From positions 41,381-105,380 of IMG/VR virus record IMGVR_UViG_3300009514_000007: a stretch of 64,000 nt of DNA; one strand, written 5' to 3'. This document shows, piece by piece, positions 3,001-63,157 of the stretch. Origin of the DNA: a virus. A program made the position numbers and the translations under genes. The notes beneath the pieces were generated by a model. The model saw only the letters and a list, made by a program, of their open reading frames with translations, searched no databases and was not told the origin of the DNA. Every line of letters begins with the position of its first letter. The first letter of the stretch is position 1.

Positions 3001-6000
3001 ACGTCTATCTCCCCTGCGTTCCTGGTATTCAACGACGGCTCGCCTCCACCAAGCCCGACTGGCGGCTTGAACGACATTATCGACGCCGCTGCCATTGGCC
3101 TTGCCTATCCCGGTAGCACGAACGTCATACGCATTCACCTGTGGACGGCGGACGACGGGGTAACTCCGCCTACGTTCTTGCAGACGGTCGAGATCGACAT
3201 CAATGCTGGTGCGCCGGTCGAGGTCACGGGCAACGCTGGCACTGTGTCTCCGGCTGGTATCTCGGCATCAGAGATCGAATTCGATCAGCAGGTGCTCACC
3301 ATTGACTCGCCCGCTTTCGTGAGCATTGGCGGAGCCCCCGGAGACATTCCCGAGGACCCGACGAACCTTGGCTTCTCGGTGCCGCTGTGGTTCACGATCG
3401 ACGTTGACGTGTCTGATGTGGGAGCAGGCTCGGGAACGGGGTACATCGACACTGACCGGCTCTCGTTTGTGGAGAGCTACGACCTTCGCTCGGTGCGTAG
3501 TCGGGACGAGCCGGATGTAGACACCAGGAATGTCAGTGGTGATTTGGAGGTGTTCACCATTTCAGGGCCGGGGTCTAGCGACATCACCGTGAACGGAGCG
3601 ACCGAGGTTAACGGCGGCTTGGCCTTTACCTGGAAAGACCGCTCGGCTGTGTTCCCGTTCACGGGAGGCGAGTTTGATTTCACGGGCGAAGGTCGGATCA
3701 AGGTCATGGCCTTTGAGGGGCACGGCAACGTGGCTCTCGCCTCGACGCAACCCGTCGTGTTCTCGGCGATCCCATCCTCCCCGCAAGATGAAATCGGGGT
3801 GATCACGGCGGGTGAAGGCTCGTGTGAAGGTGGCCTGACTGATTTCGACAACCGGATTGCAGTGGACGATACGGACATCGACCCCGGCGTTGCGGGTTCG
3901 GGCGCTGTCTTGGGGAGGATCCAGCCTGGTGACATCGCTGTGATCACGGCTTCCAATCTTCCTGCGCTTGTAGGAACGAGCAAGGCTGGCACGTACCTTG
4001 TCAAGCACGCCGTTGCCCCTGACTCGGGGGCTAATTACGGCTCGTACACAATCCTGAGTAAGACACTCCCGCTCAACTCGACGGCAGGGGCTATTCAATT
4101 CCGCTTCCCCACGCTCGTTTCTCTGGATACCTTTGCGGGGAAACTGGTTCTTGACACCACTTTGCTGTCGGATGGCACGCCTGCATGGCGCCTACCCATC
4201 GCAGCGGACACCCGCATCTGGTTTATCCCCGACCCCACGGACATCCGAACGGTTGTGAGCGTCGAGTACACGGCTCACAACGCTTTGACCGGGGAGTTCA
4301 CCATCGACCTCGGTACGATCGAGGATATTTCGGGTGGTCTCGCTAGCTTCCCTGACTCTATCGTTCCTGGCATCACCGTCTCGGGTTTCGCTCGTGCGGA
4401 GATTCGGTTCGACCGCGCCGGGCTCGGGCTGCCTCGTAACCTCGTCGGGTACCGCAACGACCCCGCCGCTCCAGCCTTCCCCGATGCCGCGTTTGGGTTT
4501 GGCAAGGTCACGATCGGAAACCCGACCTCTCAAGATGTGGCTGGCGTGGATACTCCCCTCCAGCCTGGCATTGGCCCCTCTGTGCTCACTCGCGCGGCTT
4601 CGCTTGTGAATGAAGCTGCGGCTCCTACAGACACTCCAGCAATCCCTGAGATCTTGATCGCCGAGGGCACGCCGATCGCCAACACGTCCTTTGATTCGGA
4701 CCCTGATGCGTTGGTTTATGAGAGTGTTGCTGCGGTCTTTATCTTCGCTCTTGACGCTACCGAGTGGACGAAAGTACACGGAGAAATCCCCTTCCCCGGC
4801 GGAGCTTCTGGGCCGGGGGTGCGTTGTCTCTACCCGAGCGACACCGTTGAGGTAGAGTTTCGGGCACAGGCAGGAGTGTTCCTTGAGCCCTCGGTGCCCC
4901 GTCCCGTGCTCGACCTGGCGAGTGGCGGCCCCAAGGTGGTCGATGCCGGAAACTCGTTGGTCGCGTCTCAAATCGGGATGCGAGATGGCGGCTTTTTTGG
5001 CGTCTCTTTGGCCCCCAACGGGACTGAGAAGGTGCGGTTTGAGGTTCGGCGTATCCGTCGTTTTCACAAGGCGATGGACAACATCGGCGATCTGTTGGCC
5101 CCGTTGAGGTACGCCTACGAGATTCGCACTGGCGTTGTGGACTCGTTTGGCCCGCAGAACCTTCCGCCACAGAACCAGCCGTGGCCTTACGTGATTGAGG
5201 CGGCTGGCGGCACGCAGCTTGGCCCGTTTGACGACGATGACGTGAACGTGAATCCCGGTGATTTCTTCCGTCTGCTCGATGCGAACGGGAAGCTGATTGA
5301 CGAGGTAGAGATCGGGGCCGTGGTCGATGGGGATCGGCTGGCGTTGAAAGCTCCGGGGATCTTGGCAGTCACACCTGCCAACGCGGCGGGGCTCTCGTTT
5401 GAGATCTACTTGCGGAAGCCTCCCGTTCCACACGCACAGTCGAACGAGCAGCTTCTTGACCTGCTCACAGACGAGGTACTGGTCGAGCGTTCGGCTGACT
5501 ACGCCGCACAGACGGGCGGGTGGGCTCCGATCCAGGCTACACCCTTGGACCCGCGCAAGCTCAAGGACACCGACAACGCGATCAACTTTGCGGCAGCCGG
5601 GGTACAAGAGGGAGACATCGTGATCATCGACCCGGCTGGCGAGGTCCGTGGGCCGACTGGACTACCGGCGACCGGGCAAGAGCGAGGCATTCGTCCGTTC
5701 GGGGACCGCTCTGTCCCCAACCGGATCCTTGCGCAGCCGGGGCAAGAGGTTCCTTTCATCGCCGGGGCTCCCTCCGAGCTTGACGACAACCGTGGATGGT
5801 ATCGCGTCACTGAGGCTGACTCGGTGTCCGTCACGGTGAACGGCGAGAACACATTTGCCGGGCCTGGCGCAAGCCCGGTCACGTTCGGAGACGAGGCTGA
5901 GTACGCTGTCCTCCCAACGATCAGCAACTCGACGGCTCCGTTCGCTGATCCGGGAGGTGGGCCGGGGGTCGAGGGTCAAAATGACCTCCGACCGACCGGG

Positions 6001-16703: not shown

Positions 16704-16728
16704 GCCTATAGGGCGAGCTAGGTAGGAC
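16704..16728 (+). promoter_or_regulatory. Candidate late promoter GCCTATAGG plus leader element AGGTAGGAC
   Basis: GCCTATAGG-N7-AGGTAGGAC here and GCCTATAGG-N8-AGGTAGGAC at 37888-37913. RBS AAGGAG before the ATG at 16745. Confidence 0.6.
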
Positions 16729-16744: not shown

Positions 16745-19700
16745 ATGGCCGCTAGCATTGAAAGCAAAGTCAACGCAGCCGCACCGCTGGTCGGCGTGAG
16801 CCGCGAAGATCTGCGGGCGGGCGACGTAATCACCCTGACGCATGTTGGAGCGCCAGCCACGACCTACGGGTGGTCGCTGCTGTTTACGCCTGACCAACCG
16901 GACGGTACCCCGTCCACCGCGACCCTTTCCTCGACGGTCGGGCCTGGTCCGATCACCTTCACGGTAGACAACGAGGGCGCGTATCTCGTCCAATTGATTG
17001 TCGATTTCGGCCTTGGGACCGAATCGAAGCAATCCGTTCGGCTGCGTTTTCAGACCGTATTTGCGGATCTGAAACTGGTCGCGGGCGGCGAGAAGCGAGA
17101 CACCACCGAGGCCATCCCGGTCGATGCGAGCCCCGAAGGTTGGGCCGACGACCAAAACCAGAATCTCCAGACGTTGCTGGCTCTCGTCCAGCACGTCTCG
17201 TCCAGCGGTCGAATTCTCTACATCGACGCGAACCGATCGAAAGACTCCAGCAACCCTCCGAACGACCCGACCATCGCGGAAGCGTTCGCGGACGGTTCCA
17301 CCTATGCCGAGGCAGCGGCCCTCGCCAACAACCCGGTCTGGAACGAAGGCGTGCCGCCCTCGTCCACGAGTCCGGTGATCGTTGCTGCCCGGCCCGGCCT
17401 CTACATCGAGAACCTGACCCTTGAGCCCTACGTCCACCTGATCGCGTGGCCCTCGACGGGGGGCTTCGATGGTGACACGGCGCTTGGCAAGGTAGACAAC
17501 TCGGTTCGATTCCGATGTGCCAACGGTGGCGGTGTTCCGGCCCTCACTCACACGGCTAGCGTTCCGCTCGTCGGTGATTTCGTGATGGCTGCGGGCGTGG
17601 TGTTTGAGAACATCGGCACGACGACCAATGCGGCGATCCGAAAGACCGGCGTTGGCGATTTCCACGCCGTCAATTGTCGGGTCGTTCAAAACGGCAATGG
17701 GGCGGGACAGGGCGCAGCGCTCTCCCCCGAGAACGGGCGCACTTTCCTGCGGGAAACCACGCTCGTCCAAAACGCAACCTTCTCGGACGACCTCGCAGCT
17801 TTGTCTTTGGCCCCTGCGGGTCCGAATACTGCATCCGTCGTCATGGACGGAGGCAAGATCCACGGTACGTCGGCTGCGCGCCTGGACATCAATCAGGTCG
17901 GTGGTGCGGGCACCTTCGCCACTTTCCGTGATGTCGAATTCCGCCAGGTCGGCATCGGCCCGAGCAGCTACGTCGTCCACACGTTTGCTCCGGTCACGTC
18001 TTTCGACCGCTGTAGCTTTAGCAATGAGAACGGCGGCGCCGATGCGATCGAGGGCAACCCTGGAGGCGTAGGTACGCCGGGTGCCATGACCATCGAGGTT
18101 CGTCGCAGCACTCTCGGGGCACCGGGCGCCTACTTGGGCATCCTGTTTGACGACACCGGCCTCGGTGGGGCAGCGCTTTTGCGCACAGGTTCGTCGGAAT
18201 TCTTGGAGCCCATCACGGAGCCCGGCGGGACGATTCCCCGTGAGGCCCTGACTCTTGGCACGACTCTGTTCTACGACAACACGGCATCTGGTATCACGGC
18301 CGAGAACGTCCAAGACGCCATCGACCAGACGTTCGATGCTGCGGACTCGATTGCCAACCTGGACGACGCCTATGACGGCTTCGATTTCTCGACTACCCCT
18401 CCGACTCGCCTCGTTGGCGGCGGTCGGGTCATTCTCGCAGACGCCGATGCGGTCGAGGTTCACGGTTCTGGTGTCTCGACGGACCCCCCGGCCATTGACG
18501 ACCTGAGTGGTGACGGTACCGTTCGGATCAATCAGGCGTTGGAGATCGGCGCGATCAATGCCCCCGAGGTTCTGATCGATTCCAACTTGTTCGGCAACGG
18601 GCCGTTTATGTCGATGGGCCAACTTGTTTGGTCCGACAGCCCACTCGGAGCCTCCGCGTATTTCGTCGCCAAGGCGACCGGGGACACGGGCGGAACCGAC
18701 GAATACCGAAACTACAATCTCCGCATCCAGACGCAGAGCGGCTACGGGCACACGATGGCCGGGCCGATGCTCTCGGAAATGGGCGCCCTGATCCTCCAGG
18801 GTGGGTCGGCCTACGCAATCGGTGGGGTCAACTCCCCGGCTGGCGGTTCGGTCTACGTCATGGCGGGCAACGTCGATACGGCGGCTGCCGCCCCGGATGG
18901 CGACCCCGGCAACGTGTGGGTAGTCCCCGGTGTCTCGCAGGTCGGTGGTACTCCGACTGTTGGCTCGATGAAGCTGGTCGATCCCGACTCAGCGACCTCG
19001 GCAACGCTCGTTCCCGTCAGCAACTTTGTGGACTCCGGTGCTCCAGCGGGCACGATCACGTTCGCAACCGACACGGGCAAGGTCACTGTTACCTTCACAG
19101 GCGGAGAGGTCTTTGCCGGACCTGGCGGCATTCAGGAGAAGCTGCAACTGGCTTCGGGCATGGTGGCGACCTGGCCGGGAGGCGCAACGCCGATCACCCT
19201 GACCACGACTGCCATTGGCCCGACCGCTGAGCTTCTGTACGTGGCAGACACGGGAGGCGTAAACGCTTTCCTCGGTGATTTCTCGATCACGGGTGGTGCT
19301 GTATTCACGCCGGGGACGTTCCCCGTCGTCGTGGATATGTGGGCCAATGGCTCGGGCGAGCTTGAGGTGGGGCCTGTTGGCGGTGGGTCCAACATGATCT
19401 ACAACCCGACCACCGGGAAGCTTACCGTCCCCGGCCTGATTGACCCGACCGGCATGGCCTTCACCAACGAGGCCGAGGCTACGATTGCCGCCGCCGTTGG
19501 GACGCTCGGCACTGCGTTCGTGTCAGACGGCACTGGCCTTGCCCCGAACGCTGACCACCTGTATTTCCGACGTGGCAGTGATGGCGTGCTGTTCGACCTG
19601 CTTGCTGCGGGTGGAGGCGGCGCACCGCTTGGGTCGCGCTATGTCCTTTCGCCCGGCGCGGCAGATGGCTCGCTGACGGCTGAGCGAATCATCGCGGACA

Positions 19701-37887: not shown

Positions 37888-37930
37888 GCCTATAGGAGCG
37901 CCACAGGTAGGACACCTGTGCCATGGGCGC
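37888..37930 (+). promoter_or_regulatory. Candidate late promoter GCCTATAGG with leader hairpin
   Basis: GCCTATAGG 37888-37896 and AGGTAGGAC 37905-37913. Hairpin CACAGGT(37902-37908)-AGGAC-ACCTGTG(37914-37920), extendable by GCGC/GCGC pairs. Confidence 0.6.
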
Positions 37931-46229: not shown

Positions 46230-46813
46230 TCAACCGACTCACGGTCCTTTTCGCTTTTCTCGTGGCGTTCGTTTTCACCGCTCCGCTGGCCCTCGCAGGT
46301 CCGCCGGAGGGTGACACGGCCGTTGAAACCAAGGCCGACGTAAAGGCCGATGCACCCGACGCCAAGGCAGACGAAAAAGCCGACGCGACAGAGGATGCCA
46401 AGGCAGACGAAAAAGCCGAGGCCAAGACAGATGACACCGATGGAACTGGAGGGACCGATGGGACCGATGGGACCGATGGCACGGATGGCACGGACGAGGC
46501 CGACGAAAAGCTCGGCGAGCATGTGGATGCTGCGATTGAGGCGGCTCGCTCCGGCGAGTGGGCTCTGATGGTGTCCGCTCTGATCATGCTGCTGCTCGGT
46601 GTCGGCCGGAAATTCAAGGTGCTCGACAAGGTGCCCTCCAAGACGTTGCCTTGGGTGGCCGTCATCTTGGGTGTCGCCGTCGCCGTCGCTGACGCCCTCG
46701 CCACAGGCGGAGAGCTTTCGCTGGAGCGGGTGCTGCAAGGTGTCATGGCTGGCGCGGCAGCATCCGGTCTGTGGGGGATGATCGGCAAGCACGTTCTTGG
46801 CAGCAAAAAGTAG
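46226..46813 (+). CDS. Holin-like membrane protein with N-terminal signal peptide and acidic linker (195 aa)
   Basis: Signal peptide ending ALA|GPPE and a D/E/T/A-rich linker. Three hydrophobic segments follow, ending in GVMAGAAASGLW, which resembles the GLAASGLY holin motif. Last gene of the late block. Confidence 0.6.
   Translation: MINRLTVLFAFLVAFVFTAPLALAGPPEGDTAVETKADVKADAPDAKADEKADATEDAKADEKAEAKTDDTDGTGGTDGTDGTDGTDGTDEADEKLGEHVDAAIEAARSGEWALMVSALIMLLLGVGRKFKVLDKVPSKTLPWVAVILGVAVAVADALATGGELSLERVLQGVMAGAAASGLWGMIGKHVLGSKK
46361..46419 (+). repeat. 23-bp direct repeat x2 (GCCAAGGCAGACGAAAAAGCCGA)
   Basis: Copies at 46361-46383 and 46397-46419, encoding AKADEKA. Confidence 0.9.
46451..46495 (+). 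repeat. 9-bp tandem repeat x5 encoding (GTD)5
   Basis: GGGACCGAT x3, GGCACGGAT, GGCACGGAC. Confidence 0.9.
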
Positions 46814-46835
46814 CTGCCCGCCCAACTTGCCCATT

Positions 46836-46872
46836 CAAGGGCCGCTCGGGAAACCGGGCGGCCCTTGCTTTT
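46836..46872 (+). terminator. Rho-independent terminator ending the late operon
   Basis: 14-bp stem CAAGGGCCGCTCGG / CCGGGCGGCCCTTG (one G-U), GAAA tetraloop 46850-46853, followed by CTTTT. Confidence 0.85.
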
Positions 46873-46900
46873 GGTTTCGGATCGTAGGCGCGTGTCGTTA
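46873..46900 (+). promoter_or_regulatory. Bipartite promoter motif GGTTTC-N14-TGTCGTTA
   Basis: Same spacing as the copies at 60745, 61184 and 61391; GTG start 5 nt downstream. Caveat: GGTTTC abuts the terminator T-tract. Confidence 0.55.
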
Positions 46901-51317: not shown

Positions 51318-54300
51318 GTGGTGATGGACGACGCGCTTAAAGCCGTGTACGGCAAGCTCAAGGACTACCGCACGCGGACGGATCTTTCCCTGCGCGCATC
51401 TCCATTCCTCAAGCCCACGTTCACTGGCTTTGACGGCTCGGAGAAACCGTTGAGCCATCGCTACTACCAAGTGCAGGGGATCCTGCACTTGGTCGCCATG
51501 ACCCGGTTCTTGCTCGGCGACGACTGTGGACTCGGCAAGTGCGTGACCGGCGATACGTTGGTTTTGACCGATCAGGGCCTCCGCGAGATCCATACCTTGC
51601 GTGCCGATTTGAGCGAACCGGCCGAACCAGGCACGTTCCTCAAGGCCGAGCCGTGTCGAGTGTGGACTGGACGAGAATGGGCTCCGATTAAGTCGTTCTA
51701 TTTCGATGGGGAAAAACCAACGAAGCGGATCCAAACCCGCTACGGGTTCACCATCGAGGGCTCGTATCGTCACCCGCTGTGGGTTCGTAAATCGGAAGGT
51801 GAAGGTTGGAGGCGGCTGCCTGACCTCGCGGCGGGGGATTTCGTGTGCATTGAACGACGCGAGATGGCATGGCCGGAGGACAAGGTGCCTCTGCATTGGG
51901 TCACGGATCGCCCGTCCAATGCCAAGCAATACAAAACGCCCGAGTGTCTGACCCCGGAGCTTGCCCGGTTGCTCGGGTATTTCGTGGCGGAGGGAAATTC
52001 AACGAACCCAAACGGGTTCACGATCACGCAATTCGACCCCGAGGTACACGCGGACATCCGTGATTTGCTGGATGGCTGTTTTGGTTGGACGGGCAACGCC
52101 CATAGCCAGAAGGCCGACACGGAGATTCAAATATCGAGTGTCGTGCTCCGCGATTTCGTTGCGCACTGCGGGGCTCTGCATGTTAAATCGGCCAAGAAAC
52201 AGATCCCGTGGCGAATCCTCCGCTCCCCGCGTGAGGTCGTGGTTCAATTTCTACGCGGACTATTTGAGGGGGACGGCCATGCTCTCCCCGGATCCGGGAT
52301 CGAGTACACCTCAAAATCGAGGCGGCTGTGTTCGGAGGTCCAGGCCACGCTCCTGCGTTTTGGGATTGTGTCGAAAGTAAGCTGCAAACCCGTCAACGGT
52401 GAGGACTATTGGAGGCTGACGATCTTTGGCGACGACGCGAGGGGGTTTGCGCAGAAGATTGGGTTTGTGACGGCGCGCAAGAACGAAGCCTTGGATCAAG
52501 TGCTGTCGAAAAACGGCAACCCGAACCACGACGTGCTTCCGTTTGTTGCACCCCTTGTGTCCGCTTTGTATGCCAAGCTCAAAGATGCCACGACGGTTCG
52601 TGGAGCGAATGTCGCCAAACGCGGGTCGGGGATCAAGCAATTTGGCAACGGATTTCGGCTCGCCATGCGCGAGGTGATCAGGGGAGAGCGTGACCTGACC
52701 TATGCCAAGCTGGACGAGCTTCTTTCCCGGTGCCTGGATTTCGGATTGTCGTCGGAACCTGAGTTCCAAAAACTGCATACGCTTGCATCTCGTCGGTTTT
52801 TCTACGACCCCGTTGTGTCGATCGAGGACGGCCACGCTCCTGTCATGGACCTGGAGATCGATCACGACGACCACAGCTTCGTGGGCAACGGGTTCGTCAA
52901 CCACAACACACTCCAGGCGATCACCGCGCTGTGTTTCCTGTGGGAGCGCGATCCGAATCAAAAGGTCGTGATCCTGACGAACAAGAGTGCGGTCGGTCAG
53001 TGGTGCAAGGAATTCGACAAGTTCTGTCACTCGGACAAGCTCACGATTCTTCGCTGCATCGGCACCCCCGCCAAGCGCAAGAAGGTCTACGCCGAGTTTG
53101 AGGCCGCGACGGGGCCGACCATCCTGGTCATGGGGTACGCGACGGCGCGCCAGGACATCAGCCTGATCCAAGATTGGTCCGACTACATCGTGATCTTCGA
53201 TGAAGCCACGGCGTTCAAGAACCCCAAGACACAGATCTACAAGGTCGCTCGCCACCTGTCGGAGCGGGCAGCGGGGCTCGACCGGGAAAGTGGTGAGTGG
53301 CGTAAGGGTCGCGTGTGGGCGCTGACGGCGACGCTGATCAAGAACCACCTGATTGAAGGTTACGGGATCTACAGTGTGATCGTGCCGGGTCTGTTTCCGT
53401 CGAGCAAAAACAAATTCGTCAACCGCTTCTGCATCACCAAGCTCCAACGGATCAAGGGCAACCGCCATATCCCGATCATCGTCGGCTACCGCGACGGAGC
53501 CATTCCCGAGTTCAAGGAGAAGATCGACCCGTACTACCTTGGGCGACCCAAGCACGAGGTAGCCAAGGAGCTTCCGCCGCTCACGACCCGCATCGAGAAG
53601 GTCGGGTTGACTAAGGCGCAGAAGGACAAATACGCCGAGGCGCTTGCCGGGTTGTTGGAGATCGACAAGACGGGCGAGGAAAAGGAAACGACCAAGCTGA
53701 CGGCGTTGATCTACTGTCAGCAGATCGTAGACCACCCGGCGCTGGTCGAGTGCGAGGGAGAGTCGGAGAAGCTGGAGACGCTGATCGACCTCGTGACCAA
53801 TGGGGAATTCGCCGAGGAAAACGTGATCGTCTACTCGCGCTTCCGCAAGATGGTGGATTACATGCAGCCCATCTTGGAAAAGAAGGGCGTCAAGACGGTG
53901 CGCATCACAGGCGCCGAGAAGGACGACGAGCGCTTGGAGGCGATGGAGGCATTTCAGAACCCGAAAGCGGAAGCCCGTTGCGCGCTGATCACCGACGCGG
54001 CCTCCGAGGCGATCAACCTCCAGTCGGCCAAGGTGATCATCTTCTACGACTCGCCGTGGTCGGCAGGTAACCTGCTCCAGATCCTTGGCCGTATGATCCG
54101 AATCGGGTCTGAGCATGATCGCTGCTACGCCATTCATCTATGCGCGCGGCGAACCATTGACGAGAAGGTGCTCGCCGTCCTCAAAAAGAAGATGAAGCTG
54201 ATCGAGTCCATTATCGGTAAGCGGATCAAGGGCGAGGACGACGACGTAGAGGTTGCAGAGGTTAACGACATCACCGAGATCTTCGACGCCATGAAGGCCG

Positions 54301-54326
54301 ACGCATTGGGCTTCTTGAACGAATGA
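51318..54326 (+). CDS. SNF2/SWI2-family helicase interrupted by an intein
   Basis: Walker A GDDCGLGK|T, Walker B IFDEA, LTAT, EAINLQ, QILGRMIRIG. About 546 aa after splicing. Confidence 0.93.
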   Translation: MVMDDALKAVYGKLKDYRTRTDLSLRASPFLKPTFTGFDGSEKPLSHRYYQVQGILHLVAMTRFLLGDDCGLGKCVTGDTLVLTDQGLREIHTLRADLSEPAEPGTFLKAEPCRVWTGREWAPIKSFYFDGEKPTKRIQTRYGFTIEGSYRHPLWVRKSEGEGWRRLPDLAAGDFVCIERREMAWPEDKVPLHWVTDRPSNAKQYKTPECLTPELARLLGYFVAEGNSTNPNGFTITQFDPEVHADIRDLLDGCFGWTGNAHSQKADTEIQISSVVLRDFVAHCGALHVKSAKKQIPWRILRSPREVVVQFLRGLFEGDGHALPGSGIEYTSKSRRLCSEVQATLLRFGIVSKVSCKPVNGEDYWRLTIFGDDARGFAQKIGFVTARKNEALDQVLSKNGNPNHDVLPFVAPLVSALYAKLKDATTVRGANVAKRGSGIKQFGNGFRLAMREVIRGERDLTYAKLDELLSRCLDFGLSSEPEFQKLHTLASRRFFYDPVVSIEDGHAPVMDLEIDHDDHSFVGNGFVNHNTLQAITALCFLWERDPNQKVVILTNKSAVGQWCKEFDKFCHSDKLTILRCIGTPAKRKKVYAEFEAATGPTILVMGYATARQDISLIQDWSDYIVIFDEATAFKNPKTQIYKVARHLSERAAGLDRESGEWRKGRVWALTATLIKNHLIEGYGIYSVIVPGLFPSSKNKFVNRFCITKLQRIKGNRHIPIIVGYRDGAIPEFKEKIDPYYLGRPKHEVAKELPPLTTRIEKVGLTKAQKDKYAEALAGLLEIDKTGEEKETTKLTALIYCQQIVDHPALVECEGESEKLETLIDLVTNGEFAEENVIVYSRFRKMVDYMQPILEKKGVKTVRITGAEKDDERLEAMEAFQNPKAEARCALITDAASEAINLQSAKVIIFYDSPWSAGNLLQILGRMIRIGSEHDRCYAIHLCARRTIDEKVLAVLKKKMKLIESIIGKRIKGEDDDVEVAEVNDITEIFDAMKADALGFLNE
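51540..52907 (+). mobile_element. Intein with LAGLIDADG homing endonuclease (456 aa)
   Basis: Starts CVTGDT and ends FVNHN, followed by extein Thr. LAGLIDADG helices LARLLGYFVAEG and FLRGLFEGDG. Confidence 0.93.
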
Positions 54327-60782: not shown

Positions 60783-61202
60783 ATGGACCGCTGCAAGCGT
60801 TGTGATGGAGCAGGCTTTCTCCCACAGTTTCGCCACGTCGAAAACGGCGTTTGTTGGCGTTGTGAGGGCTCAGGCACCGATCCGGGCAAGGCGCCGAAGC
60901 GACGGACCATCCGTCGCAGCCGAGTCGTGCGGGGGCCTCGGCTCAGCCGCGAGGCGAGATCGCGTCTGGATGCCCTGATCCGATCTGGCGGGAGCAAAGA
61001 ATTCACGCGGGTCACGCCGATTGGGCGTGAGCTACAGCGGCTCGGGCTCGTGCGGATTGAATTCGATCGCACCCGTGGGCGTGGACGGGCGATGGCGACT
61101 GACCGTGGCGCACGTAGCCATTGGAAGGCTATCGTCGCAGGATTGTTGCCAAATCCCCGCCACGAATCCGATCACGCCCGCACGGTTTCGCTTCGTTTCT
61201 AG
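60783..61202 (+). CDS. DnaJ-type zinc-finger (CxxCxGxG x2) basic protein (139 aa)
   Basis: CKRCDGAG and CWRCEGSG. Start reassigned from 60612, which overlaps the minus-strand gene. Confidence 0.7.
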   Translation: MDRCKRCDGAGFLPQFRHVENGVCWRCEGSGTDPGKAPKRRTIRRSRVVRGPRLSREARSRLDALIRSGGSKEFTRVTPIGRELQRLGLVRIEFDRTRGRGRAMATDRGARSHWKAIVAGLLPNPRHESDHARTVSLRF

Positions 61203-61211
61203 GCGTCGTAC
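61184..61211 (+). promoter_or_regulatory. Bipartite promoter motif GGTTTC-N14-CGTCGTAC
   Basis: Same spacing as the other copies; 7 nt upstream of the first base of the ncRNA closing stem. Confidence 0.6.
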
Positions 61212-61218
61212 TCAGTAC

Positions 61219-61374
61219 GCCCCGTGGGAATGACCAGCGTGGCAACCCCTTCCAAGGCGATGTTTGCCCATCGCTTAGGTAGTCCAAGGCAAGGGCCGGT
61301 CCAGGATCGGAAACCTACCGAACGGACAGCGGCCTTGACTGGCCGTGTAGGGAGGCTGGTCAGACCTGCGGGGC
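61219..61374 (+). ncRNA. Putative structured ncRNA of unknown family (about 156 nt)
   Basis: Nested stems 61219-61228/61365-61374, 61231-61238/61355-61362 and 61249-61253/61350-61354, a hairpin 61255-61276, and a long apical arm 61278-61344. Has its own promoter motif. Confidence 0.6.
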
Positions 61375-61390
61375 ACGCATTTAAGGTCCA

Positions 61391-61418
61391 GGTTTCCCGA
61401 TCGAAGGCTCTGGCGTAA
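61391..61418 (+). promoter_or_regulatory. Bipartite promoter motif GGTTTC-N14-TGGCGTAA
   Basis: GTG start of the HD gene is 7 nt downstream with no SD between. Confidence 0.7.
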
Positions 61419-61425
61419 GTAGGCT

Positions 61426-61944
61426 GTGGAGAGACTCAACGAACAGGCGCGGGAGTACGCCGTCGAGGCGCACGGCGACCAAAAGTACGGGGACGAGCCT
61501 TACGTCGTTCATCTGGATGCTGTGGTCGCCATCGTGCGCGAGGCGGACGGGTCGGAGCTTGCCGAAGCTGTCGCCTGGCTGCACGACGTTCAAGAGGATA
61601 CGGATCGCAACTCGGCCGAGTTGGAGCGGCTGTTCGGTCCCGTTGTGTCGGTCGCTGTTTCGTGCGTCACGGATCCCAACGGGCCGAATCGCCGGACACG
61701 CAAGGCGCGGCTGCACGCTCAACTGGCGAAGCTCGATCACGAGCAGCATGAGAGCTACCGGATCGCGTTGCTGGTGAAGGCAGCCGATCGGCTCGCCAAT
61801 CTCCGAGCCTCGGAAGCGAACAACGAGCGTCTGCTCAAGATGTACCAGCGGGAGGCCAAGGCTTTCCGCGAAGCCGCGTATCGCCCTGGCCTCGCCGATG
61901 GTGTGTGGGCCGAGATCGATCGCATCACAGGAGACACGGTTTAA
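61426..61944 (+). CDS. HD-domain (p)ppGpp hydrolase-like protein (small alarmone hydrolase / Mesh1-like)
   Basis: AHGDQ...PYVVH...AWLHDVQEDT...V..VT...VKAADRLANLR. Confidence 0.85.
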   Translation: MERLNEQAREYAVEAHGDQKYGDEPYVVHLDAVVAIVREADGSELAEAVAWLHDVQEDTDRNSAELERLFGPVVSVAVSCVTDPNGPNRRTRKARLHAQLAKLDHEQHESYRIALLVKAADRLANLRASEANNERLLKMYQREAKAFREAAYRPGLADGVWAEIDRITGDTV

Positions 61945-62411
61945 TGGACCACCGCAATCTCAAGAAAAAGCCGTGGCTCGTCCAACGAGTGCTGCGGAAG
62001 GACTCCGAGGAGAAGGGCATCGACGGCGCGTTTGGGTTCGACTACATGGGCTCGGCCGAGTTTGAATTCGGCTCGCTGTTCCATGCCCTCAAGGCCATGC
62101 GCGCCACATGGGACCAGTACCTTCCCGAGCCGAAGCGGATCAAAGACGAGAACGGACGCATCGTGTGGTACGTCGGACCCGACGACGCCGAGATCTTGGC
62201 CTTTGCCGAGTGGTTCTTTGTCGATCAGAGCTACGGACACTGCGAACATGACCTCAAAGAGCGCACGGACATGCGTCGCGCCTACGAGGACGAGCCCGAT
62301 CGGTGGGCTCCGACTGGTTGGTGGGCCATCGACCACGACACTCCCTGGCTCCTGTTCGTCAAAAAGGACGACGCACGGGAGTGGATCAAGCGGACGAAGG
62401 AGCAGGAATGA
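61944..62411 (+). CDS. Phage hypothetical protein (155 aa)
   Basis: TAATG coupling; FDYMGSAEFEFG motif. Confidence 0.75.
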   Translation: MDHRNLKKKPWLVQRVLRKDSEEKGIDGAFGFDYMGSAEFEFGSLFHALKAMRATWDQYLPEPKRIKDENGRIVWYVGPDDAEILAFAEWFFVDQSYGHCEHDLKERTDMRRAYEDEPDRWAPTGWWAIDHDTPWLLFVKKDDAREWIKRTKEQE

Positions 62412-63157
62412 CGACTCCCTGGTACGACACAAAAGAGGGCCTGGAGGCCCGCCTGAAATCTGGCATCGCTGGACTCCGCGAGATTGCCCGCGCGCGGCAT
62501 ACGGCCGGGTACGAACGTCGGGAGCGGATGGCTGAATGGTGTCTGATTGGACGTTTCTGGACCGACTCTTGTGGGAATTTCTCGCGCTTCACGGAGGGGG
62601 CTCCCCACGATCAGAGGGGCCGGATCGAGATCCCGGACGTGATGTCCCGAGAACAAGCTCTTGGGATCTCCGAGTGGATCACGACCACCTTCACCGAGCT
62701 TCCGCCCGAGGATGGTCGGTGCGATCGGTGCGATGGCGTGTGGACGATGCGCAACGTGGACGATTTCATGTGGAAGCGGGATCGCGGCGACCTGCCCGTG
62801 GCCCGAGCCCGTCACAAGACCTGCAACCGCCTGGCGATCATCGAGGCGGAGGCTGACGAGATCCGCAAGATCGTGGAGCGTTCGGAGATGCCGTTCAACT
62901 CGATCCACATGATCCCGAACGAGTATTTCCCCGACCCCGACGTGTACGGCCCCTGGTTTATGATCGAGACTCCCAAGGGTCGGATCAAGATCGGATGGCG
63001 CAAGCGGGTGATCAACATCGACTGGTCGCTCTCGGGCTACGGTGCCAAGGGCGAGGACGTTGTGGACGAGGCCAACGTGACGTACGGGCCTCAGTACGTC
63101 CATGCTTACGGTGCAGACAAGGCCGTGGAGGCCCTGCGGAAGATTGCGGGGGCTTAG
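62408..63157 (+). CDS. Phage hypothetical protein (249 aa)
   Basis: ATGA overlap; C-terminal IPNEY...PWF...GRIKIGWRKRVINIDW; CDRC pair. Confidence 0.75.
   Translation: MTTPWYDTKEGLEARLKSGIAGLREIARARHTAGYERRERMAEWCLIGRFWTDSCGNFSRFTEGAPHDQRGRIEIPDVMSREQALGISEWITTTFTELPPEDGRCDRCDGVWTMRNVDDFMWKRDRGDLPVARARHKTCNRLAIIEAEADEIRKIVERSEMPFNSIHMIPNEYFPDPDVYGPWFMIETPKGRIKIGWRKRVINIDWSLSGYGAKGEDVVDEANVTYGPQYVHAYGADKAVEALRKIAGA

Follow-up and report, generated by a model that had tools for sequence, protein, structure and literature searches.

The 64,000-nt stretch of viral DNA analysed here (hereafter the window) comprises bases 41381-105380 of IMGVR_UViG_3300009514_000007, an IMG/VR virus record of 115,952 bp with a GC content of 60.6%. 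CheckV puts the completeness of the record at 22%, and the full phage genome should therefore be roughly half a megabase. In the early region of the window, a 223-nt gap separates a zinc-finger gene from an HD hydrolase gene. This gap holds a structured element of 156 nt (61219-61374 in window numbering, + strand), which is the subject of this study. An earlier note, made from the sequence alone, described it as a promoter-driven, heavily base-paired non-coding RNA (ncRNA) of no recognised family, and suggested that it might be a 6S-like polymerase decoy. We find that the fold statistics, the strand bias, the register of the promoter, the lack of a family match and the poor coding signal all agree with the description, but that the 6S-like label is unsupported. 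The element is a credible, though unproven, candidate for an orphan ncRNA.

Four features surround it, all on the + strand. The upstream gene (60783-61202) encodes a 139-residue protein with a CxxCxGxG zinc finger, 54% identical to its counterpart in the closest relative that we found. Overlapping the final codons and the stop of this gene is the first of two predicted promoters, P1 (61184-61212), which consists of the −35-like GGTTTC (61184-61189), a 17-nt spacer and the −10-like hexamer CGTACT (61207-61212). On the far side of the element lies the second, P2 (61391-61419; GGTTTC-N14-TGGCGTAAG), the promoter of the downstream gene (61426-61944). That gene encodes an HD_4, RelA/SpoT-type HD hydrolase (PF13328 match, 1.8e-11). 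Exact-protein look-ups of the two flanking gene products returned no record.

The element is closed by the pairing of its own ends. A 10-bp closing stem joins 61219-28 (GCCCCGTGGG) to 61365-74 (CCTGCGGGGC) and includes two G-U pairs; it is followed by a second, perfect stem of 8 bp between 61231-38 (TGACCAGC) and 61355-62 (GCTGGTCA). Further in, CTTCC (61249-53) pairs with GGGAG (61350-54), and a side hairpin (61255-61276) carries an 8-bp stem, AGGCGATG with CATCGCTT, around the loop TTTGCC. The remaining branches of the predicted junction are a central arm (about 61281-61327) and a third hairpin (61329-61346). The pairings and the side hairpin that the earlier note had listed were all found at the positions it gave, and a repeat search recovers the pairing arms (inverted repeats I3 and I12).

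This fold is well beyond chance. RNAfold assigns −81.3 kcal/mol to 61217-61376 (+), against a mean of −61.5 ± 4.3 kcal/mol for 200 dinucleotide shuffles (z −4.65). None of the 200 shuffles is as stable. The minimum free energy (MFE) structure has 54 base pairs (38 G-C, 11 A-U and 5 G-U) and represents 9.9% of the ensemble. Pair probabilities are at least 0.9 for the closing stem, the second stem and the side hairpin; the interior of the element is less certain. In this single-sequence prediction, the MFE and centroid structures both have a four-way junction from which the closing stem and three hairpins emerge, and the closed unit is retained when 311 nt are folded. The long irregular apical arm that had been read from the sequence (AGTC-C-AAGGC/GCCTTGACT) is a legal pairing, yet it lies 5.4 kcal/mol above the MFE; the constrained alternative combines that long arm with the side hairpin, again without a large bubble.

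The fold is not, though, unique within this genome. We scanned the whole record on both strands with a span of 160 nt, optimising the register for the best candidates and correcting for GC content. The element ranks third among the 160-nt folds of the record (GC-corrected z −3.60), and two sites, 46713-46872 (+) and 51337-51496 (−), fold as well or better. The former includes a textbook intrinsic terminator (46827-46872) at the end of the virion operon, with a 14-bp GC-rich stem, a GAAA loop and a CUUUU tail; it directly adjoins a GGTTTC promoter at 46873. The latter, with −79.9 kcal/mol and a GC-corrected z of −4.46, ranks second in the record. It is oriented antisense to the helicase gene (51318-54326), whose 5' portion it overlaps, contains a perfect 12-bp hairpin and is possibly an antisense RNA or a DNA-level site.

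The two strands of the element are not equivalent. The − strand folds at −73.0 kcal/mol (z −2.85) as against −81.3 kcal/mol (z −4.65) for the + strand. Mirrored onto the − strand, the MFE structure loses 6.4 kcal/mol and has an energy of −74.9 kcal/mol; its five G-U pairs, of which the closing stem holds two, turn into C-A mismatches. Moreover, both mismatches in the outer inverted repeat are transitions that preserve G-U pairing on the + strand, an outcome with a probability of about 3% by chance. Because of these G-U-preserving transitions and the weaker mirrored fold, the evidence modestly favours a + strand RNA structure over a DNA palindrome.

P1 belongs to a family of repeated promoter motifs. 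The consensus GGTTTC-N17-CGT[AT][AC]N, which corresponds to the GGTTTC-N14-YGGCGTAA of the earlier note, occurs eight times in the record against 0.23 copies expected from a Markov-1 simulation of the same composition. Seven of the eight copies directly precede a start codon or the element, on the coding strand. The −10 variant of P1 (CGTCGTACT) is also present ahead of a protein gene at 18989 (−) of the 116-kb record, and the motif is kept at the homologous position in the closest relative. The CGT −10 box, we presume, resembles the promoters of extracytoplasmic function (ECF)-type sigma factors.

The spacing of these promoters predicts where transcription from P1 would begin. At the sister copies, the start codon lies 6-11 nt past the −10 box. 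The genes behind GGTTTC promoters (window 60745, 61391 and 64141; L035:12810 in the relative) have ATG or GTG starts and no Shine-Dalgarno sequence, which implies, as far as the sequence can tell, that the early mRNAs are leaderless or near-leaderless. The start of the HD gene is placed at GTG 61426, 6 nt past the −10 box of P2, because an in-frame TAG stands at 61420; the gene is apparently leaderless, and in the relative the HD gene has an ATG 7 nt past an identical −10 box. Given leaderless sister genes that begin 6-7 nt past the −10 box, the P1 start is predicted at G61219. By the register of the sister genes it falls within 61218-61220, and so coincides with the first paired base of the element. 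We regard this coincidence of the predicted start with the closing stem as the strongest single argument for a putative independent transcription unit. It also agrees with the earlier claim that a promoter precedes the element at the same offset as in its sisters.

Two further features touch the promoters. A 13-nt perfect palindrome, CGTACT-C-AGTACG (61207-61219, repeat I6), covers the −10 box of P1 and the predicted start; it may serve a dimeric regulator as an operator or have arisen by chance. Within the central arm, 61304-61315 (+; GGATCGGAAACC) reads as a −35-type box on the opposite strand (GGTTTCCGATCC; compare GGTTTCCCGATC in P2), where GGTTTC stands at 61315 (−). The same GGTCCAGG precedes both this site and the −35 box of P2 (direct repeat D15). 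The −35 complement could be a trace of the origin of the cassette or a recognition feature.

The element is absent from the nearest relatives of this phage. Searches with the helicase and a tail protein found the records G005-G008; alignment of DnaB against metagenomes gave loci L039-L045, and zinc-finger relatives from 1.84 billion representative proteins, taken with their contigs, gave L052-L059. An HD protein search in IMG/VR returned only non-syntenic loci, and searches with the zinc-finger and 168-residue proteins returned almost nothing. The closest relative is G005 (IMGVR_UViG_3300031539_005138, 39,989 bp), with a helicase 79% and a DnaB 81% identical to those of the window, and the metagenome contig L040 is its near-duplicate. 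More distant huge phages were also found, including G008 (152 kb) and Ga0180437_10000004 (499 kb); the sample series behind the relatives comprises IMG 3300031539, 3300031565 and 3300031673. The very large open reading frames (ORFs) in the left 44 kb of the window itself had no match among PHROG families and are probably genes for the virion. Its right part encodes a GroEL-like chaperonin, a helicase, a DnaB-like helicase, DNA methyltransferases and many small genes.

The window aligns collinearly with G005 and L040 over the interval between about 45.8 kb and 63.7 kb. In both, the zinc-finger gene runs into a single GGTTTC-N14-TGGCGTAAGTAG promoter, the TAA of whose −10 box doubles as the zinc-finger stop codon, and the HD gene begins 7 nt further on. 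Both flanking genes and the promoter are thus kept; the element and the second promoter copy are missing. The downstream half of P2 is identical to the lone promoter at the matching site in G005. If 61212-61374 is deleted, the joined flanks form the 10-mer TCGTACACGC. The same 10-mer occurs in G005, where it lies 15 nt upstream of the promoter; in the window the distance is 12 nt. The junction looks like a precise insertion or deletion. Because it is absent from syntenic G005 and L040, we take the element to be accessory, strain-specific and recently gained or lost, plausibly by recombination between the repeated promoter modules. Just after its HD gene, G005 (L034/L035) carries about 2.6 kb of extra DNA (33.4-36.0 kb) relative to window 61944-62417, and the stretch around this gene appears to be a hotspot of accessory-gene flux.

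No known RNA family accounts for the element. A cmscan search with Rfam 15 (4,227 families) gave no match in the window at the gathering score and none at E ≤ 10 in 60900-61700, and ARAGORN found no transfer RNA (tRNA) or transfer-messenger RNA (tmRNA) in the window. The absence of a recognised family therefore holds in both searches, and the Rfam null excludes membership of the 6S, signal recognition particle (SRP), tmRNA, RNase P, phi29 packaging RNA (pRNA) and Y/YrlA families and of the known riboswitches and ribozymes. The features of a riboswitch or 5' leader of the HD gene are likewise lacking: P2 intervenes, the HD start is 6 nt past its −10 box, and there is no Shine-Dalgarno sequence or terminator.

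A proposed anti-Shine-Dalgarno pairing is at the level of chance. The apical ACCUACC had been likened to an anti-Shine-Dalgarno sequence able to pair with GGUAGG in two late leaders. GGTAGG occurs 17 times against 14.9 expected, the match to the two leaders is only 6 bp, and both leader copies belong to a second promoter-like motif; GGUAGG was rejected as a target. That motif consists of GCCTATAGG, then 5-8 nt, then (C)ACAGGTAGGAC or CACAGGATGCC (also written GCCTATAGG-N5-8-...AGGTAGGAC). It has three intergenic copies on the + strand, at window 16706-16728 and 37890-37913 and at record position 4841, outside the window. The window copies precede ORFs in the structural region, and the motif may represent a late promoter class.

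A search for homologues of the element was equally empty. We built a single-sequence covariance model, R1, whose sole match in the record is the element itself (201.8 bits); the element is thus single copy in 116 kb. R1 had no match in eleven other virus records, among them complete genomes of 112, 171, 193 and 395 kb, nor did it match any fetched locus or any of the related or huge-phage records, which amount to about 1.3 Mb. In IMG/VR, the terminal-repeat pattern recovered six chance hairpins, none matching R1, and the promoter pattern recovered 67 mostly random loci with no R1 match, four whole records included. In GTDB (596 Gb), the stem pattern gave 42 matches against about 28 expected by our own estimate, and none fits R1. 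An exact scan with the core 18-mer found no match, and when the element was compared by blastn (E ≤ 10) with GenBank phages and PLSDB plasmids, the only matches were of 22-28 nt and attributable to chance. Listings of public sequencing runs, DNA or RNA, had no entry for the sequence. Across 307 bacterial genomes (5 + 302), R1 gave a single match of 30.9 bits in an Acidobacteriota metagenome-assembled genome (G014:C23:31155-31289; L169:1501-1635, −). We rejected this 135-nt match as a generic long hairpin, because only its 20-bp closing helix aligns to R1 and its interior does not. These searches are blind to distant homologues in large collections, and by orphan we mean that no relative was found by them.

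The element is overlapped by an ORF of 64 codons (61224-61418, +), which is probably spurious. Its GC content at the three codon positions is flat (.64/.58/.59, vs.63/.46/.74 in 17 long genes), and its codon log-odds score is −0.27, against 0.40 ± 0.14 for in-frame 64-codon windows (5th percentile 0.16). No protein homologue was found among 5.8 billion clusters, none of which shares even three 5-residue words with it. The AlphaFold2 model has a predicted local distance difference test score (pLDDT) of 65 and a predicted template modelling score (pTM) of 0.21, with two 7-residue helices. The last nine codons are P2 read in frame, GGTTTC giving V-S and CTGGCGTAA giving L-A-stop, and the zinc-finger gene of the relative ends likewise (tails ...GLVSAQAPLA* and ...VQVSRSKALA*). 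An open run of 64 codons has, by our own calculation, a chance of about 12% per frame at this GC content. The GUG start at 61224 is buried in the 18-bp closing helix. When the synonymous codons of the ORF are permuted with composition kept, the mean energy is −64.7 ± 4.6 kcal/mol and none of 300 permutations reaches the native −81.3 kcal/mol (z −3.62). The fold is therefore no by-product of the encoded peptide. Resampling of codons by genome usage gave z −1.54; this procedure raises GC and hence was not used as a control.

We think it about evenly balanced whether the element is a stand-alone, promoter-driven and stable ncRNA cassette that acts in trans. Several findings weigh against such an RNA. 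Two other sites of the record, as described above, fold as well or better. The searches above found no homologue, and the candidate is a matter of one sequence. There is no intrinsic terminator downstream, and transcripts from P1 may read on. The codon test is weak, since the genuine, conserved zinc-finger gene also scores −0.13. Finally, the best full-length zinc-finger relative, P0001 (42% identity; a singleton on the 1,269-bp Logan contig from SRR14739669), is followed 35 nt on by a called ORF of exactly 64 residues and then by another gene, the gap measuring 263 nt against 223 nt in the window. On that contig the zinc-finger gene spans 441-878 and the called ORF 913-1107, and the next gene starts at 1142. 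If homologous, this ORF mildly favours a protein. The SRR14739669 contig may itself be a second instance of the cassette. P0001 ends in ...EQVSFA*, and a GGTTTC box may hide there.

It is quite improbable that these points add up to a small basic protein of 64 residues, translated from a nearly leaderless GUG, with the RNA fold incidental or merely regulatory. The frame is open, its GUG lies 5 nt past the predicted P1 start in a phage that seems to use leaderless GUG and ATG codons, and both the P0001 contig and the poor codon statistics of the genuine zinc-finger gene lend the idea some weight. Nevertheless, the codon score and third-position GC are non-coding-like, the clusters hold no homologue, no confident fold is predicted and the start codon is sequestered in the closing helix. 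The frame's last nine codons are simply P2, in the same reading as the zinc-finger tail of G005; its length is not exceptional, and the native fold outdoes composition-preserving synonymous permutations. Somewhat less improbable, but still not what we expect, is a structure that works in cis, as a 3' stabiliser or U-tract-less terminator of the zinc-finger mRNA or as the leader of a long P1 transcript into the HD gene. The element begins only 17 nt past the zinc-finger stop codon; the lack of a terminator of its own makes read-through from P1 into the HD gene likely, and in such a transcript RNA 61304-61315 could pair with 61391-61402. Against this, the closing stem starts exactly at the predicted P1 start, no riboswitch family matches and the relatives, to judge from their sequences, express both flanking genes without the element. 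A P1 leader, moreover, could scarcely govern translation of the HD gene, which has a promoter of its own, lacks both a leader and a Shine-Dalgarno sequence, and is preceded by an in-frame stop at 61420.

An insertion of selfish or vestigial DNA, whether a miniature inverted-repeat element, a palindromic one or the scar of a recombination event, is unlikely, if less so than either of these. On this view the 20-bp terminal inverted repeats would account for the fold, and the RNA would be functionless. The ends of the element are indeed inverted repeats, with 20-nt arms that are 80% complementary and 116 nt apart (I3), the closest relatives lack the element, and removal of 61212-61374 restores TCGTACACGC as in G005, which looks like a precise insertion. 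However, the element is single copy in 116 kb and has no counterpart in the 1.3 Mb of related and huge-phage records; its terminal-repeat pattern is at chance level in IMG/VR and in the 596 Gb of GTDB, with nothing matching R1. Its flanks (...CAGTAC and ACGCAT...) have no direct repeat and hence no target-site duplication. The outer-repeat mismatches both keep + strand G-U pairs and the interior is highly paired too, both of which speak against a DNA insertion. Least probable by far is a 6S-like decoy that sequesters RNA polymerase holoenzyme. 6S RNA is a long irregular rod with a central bubble that sequesters the housekeeping RNA polymerase, and a promoter-driven, stable-looking RNA of about 156 nt in the early region, with the complement of a phage −35 box in its central arm, invites the comparison. 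Yet no Rfam 15 6S model matches even at E ≤ 10, the predicted structure is a multi-branch junction instead of a rod with a large central bubble, and the nearest relative uses identical promoters without the element. No Sigma70_r2 or other sigma-factor domain was found in the 115,952-bp record, a search that is uninformative at about 22% of the genome.

The stand-alone ncRNA can be pictured as follows. From P1 (GGTTTC-N17-CGTACT, ECF-sigma-like by its −10 box), a 156-nt RNA would be transcribed whose first base lies at about 61219. Its two ends would pair in the 10 + 8 bp closing stem, which would bear a multi-branched core, and the helix-buried ends would shield the molecule from exonucleases. 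Transcription, accumulation as a discrete RNA, the 3' end and a binding partner are what we infer here. In the early phase of infection such an RNA would most likely work in trans, binding a protein or serving as a decoy; its buried ends and lack of a U-rich tail would fit this role better than that of an Hfq-type base-pairing small RNA. The cassette would be gained or lost between two conserved early genes via recombination at the repeated promoter modules.

A bolder extension of this proposal is doubtful. The element might found a new family of phage stable RNAs, carried as promoter-bounded cassettes that move between huge phages. Its members would act in trans early in infection, for example as decoys for defence or RNA-processing proteins of the host, or on the polymerase or sigma factor that reads GGTTTC promoters. 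The latter target is conceivable because the complement of the −35 box sits in the central arm. Huge phages are known for their tRNAs, tmRNAs and CRISPR arrays; we know of hardly any stand-alone structured RNAs of huge phages with a known role. If the proposal is true, the element would be a candidate RNA-based accessory or counter-defence factor, exonuclease-proof and varying between close relatives, and would illustrate how gene cassettes are exchanged where promoter modules are repeated. As a single sequence, its present value is that of a well-defined target, not yet a discovery.

Comparison with known systems places the element close to several and within none. With 6S RNA (RF00013 and related families) it shares small size, extensive pairing, an end-closing stem and, as predicted, a promoter of its own. 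It differs in that no model matches, there is no central open-promoter-like bubble and even the closest relative lacks it. The alternative fold AGUC-C-AAGGC/GCCUUGACU forms a bulged-C helix like the Ro-binding helix GGUCCGA/UUGACU of vertebrate Y RNAs. Bacterial YrlA RNAs have a GNCGAA(N)G motif and tRNA-like T and D arms (PMC4201824), all of which are absent from the element. We rejected a Y RNA or YrlA on these absences, on the lack of an Rfam match and on the 5.4 kcal/mol by which the Y-like helix lies above the MFE; no TROVE gene (Ro60/Rsr, PF05731) was detected in the 116-kb record, which covers about 22% of the genome. Miniature inverted-repeat transposable elements, repetitive extragenic palindromes and related palindromic repeats resemble it in length (about 160 bp), in 20-bp imperfect terminal inverted repeats, in being non-coding and in presence/absence polymorphism. 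By contrast with these, the element is single copy, has no target-site duplication and has no family members in the collections searched.

Two phage systems also bear comparison. The pRNA of phi29 and the 'species 1/2' RNAs of T4 are stable phage RNAs, about 120-175 nt long, whose 5' and 3' ends pair with each other and whose cores branch; to our knowledge, the T4 species have no known function. The element is likewise phage-encoded, and its predicted fold has paired ends and a branched core. It differs from them in lying in the early region of a huge phage and not in a packaging or tRNA region, in having no Rfam pRNA match and in showing no similarity to any GenBank phage. Phage 'morons' are transcription units in their own right that have been inserted between genes lying side by side in related phages; the classical ones encode proteins and end in a terminator, whereas the element seems to specify an RNA, and no terminator can be recognised after it. 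Like a moron, however, it sits between genes that are adjacent in its relatives, has its own copy of a promoter and is present in one phage and absent from another.

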